Virus genome (UHGV): UHGV-1706396
Reading direction: 5' to 3' (one strand)
DNA from: a virus
Length of the DNA stretch: 20,019 nucleotides
Part shown: piece after piece, positions 429 through 4,634 of the stretch
Numbering within the stretch: the first letter of the stretch is position 1
Layout: the number at the start of each line of letters is the position of its first letter
Translations under genes and position numbers: made by a program
The notes under the pieces: model-generated
Seen by the model: only the letters and a program-made list of their open reading frames with translations
Told to the model about the DNA's origin: nothing
The model's database searches: none

Positions 429-815
429 ATGTCTGACAACAAGATTGAATTTATAGAAAGTCGCTATGCTGCTTTTATCGCAGGGCTGATTGAATCCTCA
501 CCTATGAGTCAGGCCCAAATAGCCAGACTTATTGGTTATAAAAATGCCAACAACCTTTCTTTAATTAAAAGTGGCAAAATTCCTTTGCCTATCGATAAGG
601 TTCGTCCGTTGGCGCTGGCGCTGGGTATTGAGCCAAGTCGTCTTATGATGATGGTGCTGGAAGAACGCCAACCTGAACTCGCAGCATTTTTATACAAAGA
701 AGGCACCGCTCCTCTTAACGAGGACGAAAAACAGGTTCTTGCTGCATATAACGAGCGATTCGGTAAAGAGAAAGGCGCATCACAAAAGGTTGTTGAGGCC
801 ATAAAGTCTCTATGA
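429..815 (+). CDS. Helix-turn-helix DNA-binding protein (Cro/CI-XRE-like phage regulator)
   Basis: 128-aa ORF; HTH-like segment SQAQIARLIGYKNANNLSLIKSGK; AAAGG RBS 8 nt upstream of ATG; 3' end overlaps 3' end of the convergent integrase gene by 6 nt. Confidence 0.6.
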   Translation: MSDNKIEFIESRYAAFIAGLIESSPMSQAQIARLIGYKNANNLSLIKSGKIPLPIDKVRPLALALGIEPSRLMMMVLEERQPELAAFLYKEGTAPLNEDEKQVLAAYNERFGKEKGASQKVVEAIKSL

Positions 816-1913
816 AAAATTTACACGAATAAGCTCTGTTGATAGACGATCTCCCTTGAATTTGTGGTCAATTTCGTCTAAATCCGGTTGCTCTACGATT
901 GATGCGATGTACGTCGAGAAACTTTCTAAGGCGTCTCGCATCTCGTCCATATAATCGTGCCGGTCGTAGACCCGATCTATCCCCTCAAGACTGTGGTTCA
1001 TGATTTTGCGTGATACCTCCTGGCTTATGCCTAATGCTGGGAAGTAACTACGCGCAGTACGGCGCAAATCTCGGGGTGTAAATGGCTCAAGCTCCATCAG
1101 TTCTGGTCTTTCCAGAATACGACGTAATGCCTGGGCTATTGCCACTTTGGACATAGGAAGGTCTTTCCCGATTTTTTTATTCGAAGGCACGAGCCACTGG
1201 CTGTCTTTACCGTATTCGAACAACTCTTCAATGCATGTGCGCATTAATGTGCTTAAAGGCAGCGAATGCTCACGTGCTGACTTGTTTCTCTTGCCTTGAT
1301 TCCAAACTCCACGCTTAAGATTGAACTCACTTTTTTTAGCCCGCAGTACTTCGTCAGGTCGTCTTGCTGATACAAGACACAGTCTGGCCGCCCATTTTGT
1401 ACCAGCGCACACATTGAAGTAGTCCCATATATTCCAGAACACCCATACCTCTGCGTCGGTCAGCTTCCGCTCGCGAGGTGTGGGCTTTGCGCCACCGGCA
1501 ACTTTGTTTAGTGACATATCGTTTAACGGTGACACGTCTATCATCCCCTGGAAGGCGCACCAGCTAAGGAACTGCTTCATCAGAGAGAAAACGCGGCGGC
1601 CCATAACAATTTTGCCATCCAATATTAGAGGGTTGACCAGTTGGTTCACCATGAACCTATTAATGTCACTTACTTTTACATCGGCAATGTGCGGCAAAAC
1701 ATGTATCAAAATACAATGAACAGCGATCTCTGGCCGACGTCTGGTTATCAGCAGAGATAAGCGAGTGAATAACATGAATGCGTCCGAGAATCTCATATCA
1801 TTGCTAACCTGCGAGATCATAACGGCCTGCATTTGAGATGCTCTTTCGAGATACTCAATCGCCTCTTTTGAGGTGTTCTCCGCAGCGCGTGCTCTGTCAA
1901 AGCTATTTTTCAT
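810..1913 (-). CDS. int: Tyrosine-type site-specific recombinase / phage integrase
   Basis: 367-aa ORF; C-terminal catalytic signature of the tyrosine recombinase family (VSARRPDEV ... HSLPLS ... RDLRRTARSY ... HSLEGIDRVYDRHDY, i.e. R..H-x-x-R..Y); GGTGA RBS about 9 nt upstream. Confidence 0.85.
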   Translation of the reverse strand: MKNSFDRARAAENTSKEAIEYLERASQMQAVMISQVSNDMRFSDAFMLFTRLSLLITRRRPEIAVHCILIHVLPHIADVKVSDINRFMVNQLVNPLILDGKIVMGRRVFSLMKQFLSWCAFQGMIDVSPLNDMSLNKVAGGAKPTPRERKLTDAEVWVFWNIWDYFNVCAGTKWAARLCLVSARRPDEVLRAKKSEFNLKRGVWNQGKRNKSAREHSLPLSTLMRTCIEELFEYGKDSQWLVPSNKKIGKDLPMSKVAIAQALRRILERPELMELEPFTPRDLRRTARSYFPALGISQEVSRKIMNHSLEGIDRVYDRHDYMDEMRDALESFSTYIASIVEQPDLDEIDHKFKGDRLSTELIRVNFS

Positions 1914-2044: not shown

Positions 2045-2125
2045 TAGACGTTGTTTTTTGAATTTTAAGGGAAACAGGAGTGAGTTTGGTGGGAATAAAA
2101 AAACGGCTCCTGTGAGCCGTTAAAA

Positions 2126-2371
2126 TCAGAGGGTGCTGACGTATGCAGCCAGTTCTGTGTATCCGCCAATCGGCTGGCCATCGATCAGCACCTGGGGGAT
2201 AGTCTCTACCGGTTTACCAACAATTTCACTTAGTTTTTCCTTGTCGATACCGGCAGTGGTGATGTCGATGTACTCATAATCACCGTAGCCATGTCCCTTT
2301 AGTTGCTTCGCCAGCTCGACTGCACGTTTGCAGTATGAGCAGTTATCTCGTCCGTAGATAGTGATCGTCAT
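2126..2371 (-). CDS. grxA: Glutaredoxin 1-like small redox protein (Grx/NrdC-type, probable ribonucleotide reductase reductant)
   Basis: 81-aa ORF with CSYC active-site motif near the N-terminus and a GKPVETIPQVLIDGQPIGGY segment that closely matches the E. coli glutaredoxin 1 pattern as I recall it. Confidence 0.75.
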   Translation of the reverse strand: MTITIYGRDNCSYCKRAVELAKQLKGHGYGDYEYIDITTAGIDKEKLSEIVGKPVETIPQVLIDGQPIGGYTELAAYVSTL

Positions 2372-2439
2372 AACCTAACAAATACCTTTATAAATATTGA
2401 TTCGAACATATCAGACTATACTACAAACAGATTTTTTTG

Positions 2440-2459
2440 ATAAGTATGTAGTAACTTAT
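2440..2459. promoter_or_regulatory. Operator-like palindrome ATAAGT-N8-ACTTAT (copy 1 of 3)
   Basis: gATAAGTatgtagtaACTTATt in the divergent intergenic region between grx (start 2371) and the AT-rich gene (start 2545). Confidence 0.35.
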
Positions 2460-2544
2460 TTATTGACTGGTAAACAATTGAAGTGATTATGACAATAGAT
2501 TACAGTAAGGATTGCCTTGAAATGTACATTTTATAGAGGTTTTA

Positions 2545-3453
2545 ATGATTGGTAAGTTGTCTGATTCTTTGATTGAAAATAAATACAACGAATTTAGAGA
2601 AGAAATATCTTTACTTTTTGACTATTTAAATCAGATAAATGATACAACAAAGAAAAATATAAAACGTCTTCTAAAAGAAGTGGAGTATGCACAGAATCCA
2701 GATACTATTATTAATATTAATGAAACTATTAAGATTAAGTGTGGCACAACGTTAGCTCGCCATTTATGTTCAAACCCATATACAGGTTCAACATTAGAGA
2801 TAGGTAACAGCGCCATTGATTTAGAAGAAAAGATAAGATTGTGTAATGTTTTGAAGAATAAACAATATCAGTGGGTTATTACTGAAGCCTATGAGTTACT
2901 GGAAGACTATATTGAGGCAATATATGTCTATACTGTATGTGTTCGAAATGATTTCTGGTCCTCAAGTAATTTTGGTAAGGTTGAAGATGATGACATTGGG
3001 AAAGGGGAAGTTTATTACAAATTATTAAAAGCAAAAAGTAACCCATCGAAAAAAATAATTAAAATTTTCAGAAATAAAATACCTGGCTTCAAAGAGATAG
3101 AAATAAACAACAAGATTGGTAAAAACTATCGCTTTAACATCAAGCTAATTGAACTACTAAGACATACAATAGTACACAATAGTGGACGATTCAATGATAC
3201 AGAAAAATTTATAAATAAGGTTTTAGATGAATCTGAAATAAACGGTAAGAAAAGAGTTATTGGAGAAAGAGCTGTTAGAAGTTACATTGCTAAAGTGCAA
3301 GAAGATGATATTGTAATGCTCTTAGAAAGACCATCTGAAATTTTTGGTTCTTTTGGTGGTTATTTTAACAGAGCAAAATTTTTACTAAGTGATATTTTAG
3401 AATACTCACTAATCATTAAAGAAGAACTAAAATCATATCTAGGCAATCATTAA
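2545..3453 (+). CDS. AT-rich accessory protein of unknown function with HEPN-like Rx4H motif; candidate abortive-infection / defence protein
   Basis: 302-aa ORF, markedly lower GC than its neighbours (K/N/I-rich); GAGG RBS 6 nt upstream; R206-H211 motif RHTIVH (nt 3160-3177) fits the HEPN Rx4-6H consensus with a polar residue after Arg; opposite strand to flanking genes; own terminator. Confidence 0.55.
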   Translation: MIGKLSDSLIENKYNEFREEISLLFDYLNQINDTTKKNIKRLLKEVEYAQNPDTIININETIKIKCGTTLARHLCSNPYTGSTLEIGNSAIDLEEKIRLCNVLKNKQYQWVITEAYELLEDYIEAIYVYTVCVRNDFWSSSNFGKVEDDDIGKGEVYYKLLKAKSNPSKKIIKIFRNKIPGFKEIEINNKIGKNYRFNIKLIELLRHTIVHNSGRFNDTEKFINKVLDESEINGKKRVIGERAVRSYIAKVQEDDIVMLLERPSEIFGSFGGYFNRAKFLLSDILEYSLIIKEELKSYLGNH

Positions 3454-3454
3454 C

Positions 3455-3486
3455 AAAAAAAGGGGCCGAAGCCCCTTTGAATTTTG
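3455..3486. terminator. Bidirectional rho-independent terminator between the AT-rich gene and the tRNA cluster
   Basis: Hairpin AGGGGC-cgaa-GCCCCT (3461-3476) followed by TTTGAATTTTG on the plus strand and by a 7-T run on the minus strand (the A-run at 3454-3460). Confidence 0.75.
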
Positions 3487-3552
3487 CGCTGAAAAAAGTG
3501 TTGCTAGGATGTTAGCAAGCTATGGTTAAGAACGTCTGCCGTAATTGTCTAT

Positions 3553-3630
3553 CACAGCGTTGAGCGGTCTGGTTTATGTTAGCGGAGTCTTAATCTGGGT
3601 GATTAAAAGGCCAAACCGCTCAACGCTGTG
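3553..3630. repeat. Long inverted repeat (20-bp arms, 19/20 complementary, 38-nt loop) immediately 3' of the tRNA cluster
   Basis: CACAGCGTTGAGCGGTCTGG at 3553-3572 and CCAAACCGCTCAACGCTGTG at 3611-3630; arm sequence related to the repeat at 4901-5022. Confidence 0.6.
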
Positions 3631-3632
3631 TC

Positions 3633-3719
3633 TGGCGGAGAGTAATGGAATCGAACCATCATCGCTTGCGCAATGGGACGGTTTTCAAGACCGCTTGAGC
3701 ACCATGCTCCCTACTCTCC
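3633..3719 (-). tRNA. tRNA-Ser (anticodon TGA), class II with long variable arm
   Basis: Hand fold of the minus strand: acceptor GGAGAGT/ACTCTCC, anticodon stem GCGGT/ACCGT with loop CTTGAAA, T-arm GATGG-TTCGATT-CCATT, encoded CCA. D-arm is atypical (short loop or 3-nt linker). Confidence 0.65.
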
Positions 3720-3905
3720 GGCCGTTGTGGTGGCCGGTACTGAATCTCCGGCATACGGTGCAGCCAATTAGGACTACGGACGATCACCGCTCGCGAAAGG
3801 GAAGGTTTGCGGCCGCATTTCCCTAACATCCAAGAAAGCTATCGCATCAGTCTGCGAATCCACCACAACGGAAAGAGCATTCACGTCTCGCGTGCCACCA
3901 CGAAT

Positions 3906-3929
3906 GGCAACTCAGAGAGTCGAACTCTG
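3906..3929 (-). other. tRNA-like 3' fragment (T-arm plus acceptor 3' strand) without a recognisable 5' half; pseudo-tRNA or possible att core
   Basis: Minus strand reads CAGAG-TTCGACT-CTCTG-AGTTGCC with conserved G53, T54 T55 C56, A58, C61, but no D-arm or anticodon arm could be folded upstream. Confidence 0.3.
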
Positions 3930-4387
3930 AAAATGCTCTTACCTGTTGTGTGCTGTGTCACTCCCTCCGCTATTACCTGGCTTTGCCTCGACCTTTTAGG
4001 TTGCGTCCGATGATAAACAGGGCTGTCGGAAATTTGTCTGTGACACAGCGATAAGAGAACTCGATGCATTTAAGCCAAGCCCCATATGGGAAGTTCTCTT
4101 ATCTGTTGTGCGCTCCGTTTCGTGGAGCTAACGGCGGGTGAACAGGCCGCACCAGGTTGGACATATTTCAGCGTTATGCTGTTGCAAGAGAGCCAAATTG
4201 TGATGGTCGGTGCTGAACTCCGACACAGGGTTGTAGCAAGCCCCGCAAAGCGCGCACTACTGTAGTTGCGGCACATCAGCCTGTGCATTCACCACAATGT
4301 TGAGAACACTGGTTGTCACGCTGCAACGCAACATTTATTCATAGATTGGGATATGACCCCGTTACGCCAATGTTCTCAATATTATGT

Positions 4388-4463
4388 TGGTGCCGGTTAA
4401 CGGACTTGAACCGCTGACCATTCGCTTACAAAGCGACTGCTCTACCAACTGAGCTAAACCGGC
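4388..4463 (-). tRNA. tRNA-Thr (anticodon TGT)
   Basis: 76 nt: acceptor GCCGGTT/AACCGGC, D-stem GCTC/GAGC, anticodon loop TTTGTAA (27-43 pair mismatched), T-arm AGCGG-TTCAAGT-CCGTT, encoded CCA. Confidence 0.8.
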
Positions 4464-4467
4464 AATT

Positions 4468-4554
4468 TGGTGGGGAGTGATGGAGTCGAACCACCCGAGT
4501 CGCAATGACAGTAGATTTACAGTCTACCCCGCTACCCCTACGGACTAACTCCCC
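4468..4554 (-). tRNA. tRNA-Tyr (anticodon GTA), long variable arm
   Basis: 87 nt: acceptor GGGGAGT/ACTCCCC, anticodon arm GTAGA-CTGTAAA-TCTAC, T-arm GGTGG-TTCGACT-CCATC, discriminator A, encoded CCA. Confidence 0.85.
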
Positions 4555-4559
4555 TAAAT

Positions 4560-4634
4560 TGGCGATGGTGGGTGGATTCGAACCACCGACCAGTTGGTTA
4601 ACAGCCAACTGCTCTACCGCTGAGCTACACCATC
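4560..4634 (-). tRNA. tRNA-Asn (anticodon GTT)
   Basis: 75 nt canonical cloverleaf: acceptor GATGGTG/CACCATC, D-stem GCTC/GAGC, anticodon arm GTTGG-CTGTTAA-CCAAC, T-arm GGTGG-TTCGAAT-CCACC, encoded CCA. Confidence 0.9.

Follow-up and report, generated by a model that had tools for sequence, protein, structure and literature searches.

The DNA analyzed here (the window) is a stretch of 20,019 nucleotides from UHGV virus genome UHGV-1706396, and one of its genes, the 302-aa open reading frame ORF302, is cargo in an accessory-gene hotspot with the order int, grx, variable gene, tRNA cluster. Our preferred reading is that this phage-plasmid cargo encodes an HEPN-family endoribonuclease for abortive infection or exclusion. 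We give this reading, in which we infer the RNase activity, dimerization, the trigger and the role in defense, somewhat better than an even chance. The evidence comes from the exchange of the gene among related elements, from three residues that are invariant across a large protein family, from a predicted structure and from the genomic neighborhoods of the family.

The ORF302 cassette and its insertion site

Over its first 8 kb the window is 97.9% identical across 92% to Escherichia phage CMS-2020a (CP053388), and its further relatives by sequence are phage Cyrano and Salmonella phage SSU5. The window belongs to an SSU5-like phage-plasmid of E. coli. The features of the region are collected in Table 1.

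Table 1. Positions of ORF302, its protein modules and the surrounding features (window coordinates, except for the YafO slots, which are those of the relatives named)
Feature	Position	Strand	Remarks
int	810-1913	-	
int|grx slot	2047-2125		empty in the window
grx (glutaredoxin)	2126-2371	-	
Mobile cassette	2372-3455		1,084 bp; delimited against phage Cyrano
Divergent intergenic region	2372-2544		cassette-borne; conserved boxes, promoter-like sites on both strands, SD
Promoter-like sites	2443-2415 and 2555-2528	-	
Inverted repeat	2419-2428 / 2444-2453		9/10 complementary
Promoter-like site	2463-2490	+	
SD-like AGAGG	2535-2539		5 nt 5' of the ATG
ORF302	2545-3453	+	302 aa
Variable N-terminal module	2545-2820	+	residues 1-92; helix 2-50 plus beta-hairpin 69-91 (model)
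Long helix	2821-2943	+	residues 93-133; NKQYQW...EAYExFED motif, E117 invariant
Insert of short helices	2944-3126	+	residues 134-194; between two core helices
Rx4H motif, R206-H207-T-I-V-H211	3160-3177	+	C-terminal end of helix 195-212
GC-rich hairpin terminator	3459-3478		can serve both strands; phage-plasmid backbone, outside the cassette
tRNA-Ser	3633-3719	-	
tRNA-Thr, tRNA-Tyr, tRNA-Asn	4388-4634	-	
YafO slot, relative L052	2287-3315		
YafO slot, relative L003	4497-5452		
YafO slot, relative L002	2274-3311		

A first-pass annotation, made from the sequence alone, had described ORF302 as a gene of unusually low GC, rich in K, N and I and lying on the opposite strand between grx/int and the tRNA cluster, and each of these points was confirmed. 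The GC content of the gene is 0.290 (GC3, 0.228), compared with 0.453 in the remainder of the window; the gene lies within the lowest-GC stretch of the window's GC profile (z about -3.9). Its protein is enriched in I (11.9%), K (10.6%), L, E and N (8.6%). Because int, grx and all four tRNA genes are on the minus strand, ORF302 runs opposite to its neighbors.

Comparison with phage Cyrano delimited the cassette: homology ends at position 2371, the start codon of grx, and resumes at 3456, and in the same slot Cyrano has a gene of the gp49/gp66 family (PF13876, Phage_gp49_66). ORF302 is found at this position in phage-plasmids of E. coli, Citrobacter and Klebsiella. In the E. coli element L003 the flanks are 98-99.6% identical to those of the window, but the cassette has just 77.6% identity at the DNA level and 60% at the protein level; in Klebsiella elements the slot holds a 38%-identical allele. 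Between the window and CP053388, omega of ORF302 was 0.45, a value from small counts (11 nonsynonymous and 6 synonymous changes), as compared to 0.015-0.12 for the backbone (integrase, 0.015; ligase, 0.074). By this measure ORF302 changes faster at the protein level than the backbone does.

Among 5,426 complete E. coli genomes, 30 had the gene, in each case on a plasmid of ~108-120 kb, and 242 had the backbone ligase, so that ~12% of these elements carry ORF302. In PLSDB it was present on 58 plasmids (29 from Escherichia, 27 from Klebsiella, and one each from Citrobacter and Pseudomonas), and where these copies are annotated they are called "hypothetical protein." This distribution bears on one alternative, that the protein is an offensive or counter-defense RNase of lytic growth that shuts off host mRNA or destroys host immune RNAs. 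Such a role would agree with a phage-borne, divergently transcribed and AT-rich gene that keeps its position in the phage-plasmids of three genera. However, a gene that only ~12% of the related E. coli elements carry is dispensable, and most of its family resides on bacterial chromosomes with no phage genes, in some cases within defense islands; we regard this alternative as improbable.

Other positions in the same region also differ among the relatives. The slot between int and grx holds a YafO-toxin gene with an upstream partner of ~200 aa in three relatives (Table 1), and a 184-aa unknown ORF in Cyrano. In CP054387 (L051) one 637-aa gene (2317-4230), with DUF1737, SASA (sialate acetylesterase-like) and DUF6645 domains, replaces the whole interval from int to tRNA-Ser, grx included. 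A previous study reported diverse defense systems in SSU5-group phage-plasmids, with insertions near tRNA loci (bioRxiv 10.1101/2025.09.12.675607).

The gene adjoins the tRNA-Ser/Thr/Tyr/Asn genes in all phage-plasmid alleles, as would be expected of a tRNA-processing or tRNA-repair enzyme tied to the phage tRNA cluster. On the other hand, a tRNA gene lies within 10 kb in only 2 of 34 family loci outside the phage-plasmids, of the relatives without the gene, Cyrano retains three of the tRNAs and L051 all four, a Klebsiella element with a homologue has just two, and insertions are known to concentrate at the tRNA locus of SSU5-like elements. With the adjacency confined to phage-plasmids and uncorrelated with the tRNA set, we rejected a tRNA-processing role, to which we assign very little probability.

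Two observations concern the tRNA genes themselves. The window from tRNA-Ser to tRNA-Thr (3610-4403) is 91-95% identical to the upl/plp region of the P1, P7 and D6 phage-plasmids, which suggests that SSU5-like and P1-like elements exchange sequence at the tRNA locus. In addition, the best Rfam model for tRNA-Ser(UGA), at 3636-3720 on the minus strand, was tRNA-Sec, with a score of 46.6 bits against a gathering threshold of 47; the most likely explanation for this score is the long variable arm.

The cassette brings its own upstream region. The ribosome-binding site that had been claimed for ORF302 is present as the SD-like AGAGG, which is conserved in the E. coli alleles. Two boxes, GACTATAC.A.AAA and TAAGTA.GTAG, are kept in four phage-plasmid alleles, including the 38%-identical allele from Klebsiella. 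Promoter-like matches in the region were not above chance (4 found, as compared to 6.1 expected from shuffled sequences). An operator-like palindrome had also been proposed here, and this proposal is not supported in that form: what is present is a weak inverted repeat (z -1.7) whose arms are the conserved boxes in all four alleles, with no covariation between the arms across these alleles, and whose left arm coincides with the -10 of the minus-strand promoter-like site facing grx.

The bidirectional terminator attributed to the gene is a hairpin that is indeed stable on both strands (-14.3 kcal/mol on the plus strand, z -2.7; -16.7 kcal/mol on the minus strand, z -3.3), but it lies outside the cassette, and a terminator of the gene's own is not supported. 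The hairpin is part of the backbone, because homology to Cyrano, which is without ORF302, resumes at 3456, and its better U-tract is on the minus strand.

A protein family with three invariant residues

The first-pass annotation could not place ORF302 in a named defense family, and our searches agree with this. The protein matched nothing in Pfam, NCBIfam or PADLOC-DB v2.0.0, even at E<=10, and PADLOC models applied across 115 family members returned nothing recurrent. In PHROGs, phrog_35492 ("unknown function") matched ORF302 over its full length (1-302 of 302, E 2.6e-204). This entry is the same family as catalogued from phage genomes; it carries no annotation and names the cluster only.

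A word-indexed search recovered only seven close clusters, all on enterobacterial contigs of ~100-110 kb. With an exhaustive profile search, we found 399 representatives of 50%-identity clusters at E<=1e-3, 305 of them at E<=1e-10, and with few exceptions these are proteins of full length (285-330 aa). Every named member is annotated as "hypothetical protein"; the hosts of these members are Clostridia, Flavobacterium, Sulfurimonas, Lonsdalea, Burkholderiales, Desulfobacterales, Treponema, Leptospirales and Nitrospira. A literature search on the phrog_35492 identifier and on SSU5 defense genes found no earlier description of ORF302. Since no curated model covers the family and no description of it was found, we count it as new as a family.

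When 115 members were aligned (~25% identity), no more than three columns proved invariant: E117, R206 and H211. At position 207, 112 members have H and the other three have N, and V210 and G214 are conserved at 99%. The residues conserved at >=90% are N105, Q107, Y108, W110, Y116, Y127, W138, E186, N189, V210 and G214, and the most conserved segments are helices 93-133 and 195-212. Residues 1-92 are the least conserved part of the protein, with 1.0-1.25 bits per column as compared to 2.4-2.6 in the core helices. Against the cluster representative P0001, which is ~96% identical to ORF302, 9 of 13 differences fall in the insert at residues 134-194.

These data change the weight of a motif that had been singled out from the sequence, the RHTIVH at residues 206-211, which was said to fit the HEPN active-site pattern. 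The motif is the sole Rx4-6H of the protein, and none of the 115 members lacks its R206 or H211. Taken alone, however, it is close to chance: an Rx4-6H occurred in 43% of composition-matched shuffles and the stricter R[NDH]x3-5H in 7.6%. Its significance therefore derives only from its invariance across the family.

Shortened or disrupted alleles were also seen. P0005 and P0006 are versions of 172-173 aa, one family copy in CP012114.1 (42849-43752) is broken into three pieces, and copies on 111,123-bp plasmids of K. pneumoniae cover residues 67-299 only. Such alleles hint at a fitness cost or at decay.

Predicted structure and the probable HEPN assignment

An AlphaFold model of ORF302 built on a 39-sequence alignment had a pLDDT of 87.6 and a pTM of 0.85; a model from six sequences was discarded (pLDDT 48.9). 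In the retained model, the variable N-terminal module precedes the core, and it may serve in sensing, specificity or dimerization. DSSP placed a helix at residues 195-212, a loop at 213-218 and a helix at 219-229. Further helices follow, the last of which is a long C-terminal helix (276-301).

HEPN domains have been defined by an Rx4-6H motif that ends helix 3 and runs into the next loop, by a polar N, D or H directly after the R, by a conserved acidic residue in helix 2, and by frequent inserts between helices 2 and 3 (PMC3710099). As far as sequence and predicted secondary structure go, the arrangement of ORF302 agrees with these features. The core of the model is a four-helix up-down bundle like that of solved HEPN domains. 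All 115 family members have the motif with a polar residue after the R, and in the model it lies at the end of helix 3, leading into the loop before helix 4. We propose that helix 93-133 corresponds to HEPN helix 2 and supplies the conserved acidic residue, E117; this residue lies in the long helix before the insert, but outside the usual Ex3[KR] context. The Rx4H motif, R206-H211, is the predicted catalytic site of a metal-independent RNase.

Direct comparisons with known families did not identify an HEPN relative. The profile searches and the Foldseek search that the first-pass annotation had put forward as checks were both negative. Foldseek with the model against the PDB and viral structures (BFVD) returned long-helix noise only, Pfam scans of the family and subclade consensus sequences matched no HEPN model, PADLOC gave no match to the ORF302 protein, and hhalign gave probabilities <1% both for a HepT/DUF86 alignment and for the AbiV protein encoded next to a family gene, including in a local run with the core only. 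The starting point for the DUF86/HepT alignment was a HepT of locus L027. As Foldseek, the Pfam consensus scans and hhalign were all negative, the HEPN assignment draws on the fold and the motif only.

Some individual members gave faint matches, and these lean toward HEPN families. DUF3644, an HEPN family, was the commonest weak Pfam match (four members), and HEPN, EcoEI_R_C and Csx1/Csm6 were each matched weakly by one member (Pfam, PADLOC). These HEPN-type matches are scattered over single members at E about 0.003-0.007, and none is significant.

A sequence search of the PDB with profiles of 6 and of 115 sequences returned only the flavin-dependent halogenase CmlS (3i3l, E 0.002). The match pairs positions 80-169 of the family profile, around E117, with residues 350-435 of the halogenase. 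It is without the motif region, and we treated it as a chance match.

It could be speculated that ORF302 is a non-catalytic helical protein, such as a regulator, an adaptor or a structural protein, in which the conserved R, H and E bind a ligand or stabilize the fold and the likeness to HEPN is that of any generic four-helix bundle. We think this unlikely. Assignment to the HEPN superfamily, on the other hand, we consider likely, and ORF302 probably represents a new family within it.

Genomic context, proposed role and known HEPN systems

Low GC is a property of the family and not of ORF302 alone. The family gene had a lower GC content than its host contig in all 32 loci compared (L017-L049 and L006), whatever the GC of the host, with a gap of up to 0.29 (for example, 0.32 compared with 0.61). 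Among the 168 neighbors in these loci (three genes on each side), no protein family was shared. The ORF302 family therefore has no partner gene and is standalone.

This result also bears on the possibility that ORF302 is an HEPN-like RNase toxin that serves the phage-plasmid itself, by addiction (post-segregational killing) or as a selfish toxin, with an antidote that is unlinked, an RNA or intramolecular. In none of the 32 loci was there a conserved adjacent candidate antitoxin gene of the kind expected of a toxin-antitoxin system. Next to ORF302 itself we found no tandem repeats and no Rfam match to a known non-coding or antitoxin RNA. Most family members, moreover, are chromosomal and not plasmid-borne. 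We consider an addiction or selfish toxin unlikely. A standalone and constitutively expressed RNase toxin would require some mechanism of control, of which the analysis gave no sign, and this counts against the defense reading of ORF302.

Several neighborhoods point toward defense. Two defense islands of the Flavobacterium type hold the family gene together with SIR2-Piwi (SIR2-pAgo), an AAA_15/21 ATPase, nSTAND3 and PLDc, and in both an HEPN_AbiV gene is directly downstream of the family gene. Integrases adjoin the family gene in some loci and toxin-antitoxin genes or SymE in others, and one family gene lies between an MmeI fragment and Bro-N. Scans of the neighbors also identified PtuA/GajA-like ATPases, PDC-S15, FRG domains, a C5 methylase and a P2 tail gene. 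Most neighbors, however, are ordinary genes, and several family loci are among housekeeping genes.

The two islands, which are otherwise different, share a trio made up of the family gene, HEPN_AbiV and a 295-aa unknown gene (L006, 8001-10559; L054, 9001-11581). A motif scan also located typical HepT/DUF86 toxins near the family gene in two loci, at a distance of about 8 kb in L027 (18010-18387, minus strand) and 1 kb in L043 (11754-12386, plus strand).

Taken together, the hotspot cassette, the defense islands, the integrase and toxin-antitoxin neighbors and the low GC in every host make a role for ORF302 in defense by abortive infection plausible from context. Single-HEPN enzymes complete their active site across a homodimer. 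By analogy with these, two copies of ORF302 would probably dimerize. In the four-helix HEPN-like core that follows the N-terminal helix and beta-hairpin, E117 of helix 2 and the R206-H207-x3-H211 that ends helix 3 would make up the site of a metal-independent endoribonuclease, to be completed in the dimer. The enzyme would probably stay inactive until the cell is infected by another phage or mobile element, with the variable N-terminal module acting as the sensor or as a dimerization element. Once activated, it would cut cellular RNA (tRNA, rRNA or mRNA) and abort the infection, an outcome that would protect the lysogen population and exclude competitors of the phage-plasmid.

A more far-reaching version, which we put forward tentatively and would not expect to hold in full, is that the family forms a new broad clade of single-gene HEPN abortive-infection RNases whose hypervariable N-terminal module senses phages directly, and whose diverged alleles are swapped at the SSU5-like hotspot to exclude competitors. 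In its boldest form the enzyme would be an anticodon nuclease, and the phage tRNAs (Ser-UGA, Thr-UGU, Tyr-GUA and Asn-GUU) would buffer the element's own translation.

ORF302 is a credible candidate for a new single-gene anti-phage (abortive-infection) factor. If validated, an unannotated family of about 400 clusters at 50% identity, spread over Proteobacteria, Bacteroidota, Spirochaetes, Nitrospira and Clostridia, would join the single-gene HEPN immune effectors and would give defense-finding tools a model that they now lack. It would also document an int, grx, variable gene, tRNA hotspot with swapped toxin and defense cassettes in SSU5-like phage-plasmids that are clinically common in E. coli and Klebsiella. 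Standalone HEPN abortive-infection proteins on mobile elements are already well established, so that conceptually the gain is modest; the value of the finding lies in annotation and in a tractable, putatively new sensor module.

Among the closest known HEPN systems are the HepT/DUF86 toxins of MntA-HepT (PF01934), for example SO_3166 (PDB 5YEP) and 7AE2. ORF302 showed no profile similarity to them, as noted for hhalign above. HepT proteins are ~125-140 aa long and always paired with an MNT antitoxin, whereas ORF302 has 302 aa and no partner gene, an additional N-terminal module and a large insert between helices 2 and 3. The HepT motif is RX4HXY, and ORF302 is without the HxY extension.

The standalone HEPN proteins of abortive infection and defense, namely Abi_2 (AbiD/AbiF), AbiJ, AbiU2, AbiV, ApeA, HEC-08 (DUF3644) and BxaP (DUF4145), are also among the closest known systems. 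They have in common with ORF302 the single-gene architecture and, with the exception of AbiV, an HEPN core with Rx4-6H, which ORF302 likewise has by prediction. They are found in defense islands, mobile elements or prophages, settings that some loci of the ORF302 family share. None of the Abi, ApeA, HEC-08 or BxaP models (Pfam, PADLOC) was significant for ORF302 or for the family consensus, and hhalign with the AbiV protein was null for the family. HEC-08 has C-terminal zinc ribbons, which ORF302 does not have. Its domain, DUF3644, is the one most often matched weakly in the ORF302 family. Only the ORF302 family has the NKQYQW...EAYExFED motif and the module formed by the N-terminal helix and hairpin. 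HEC-08 and BxaP are both validated single-gene HEPN defense systems, and in HEC-08 the H of the motif is essential for defense.
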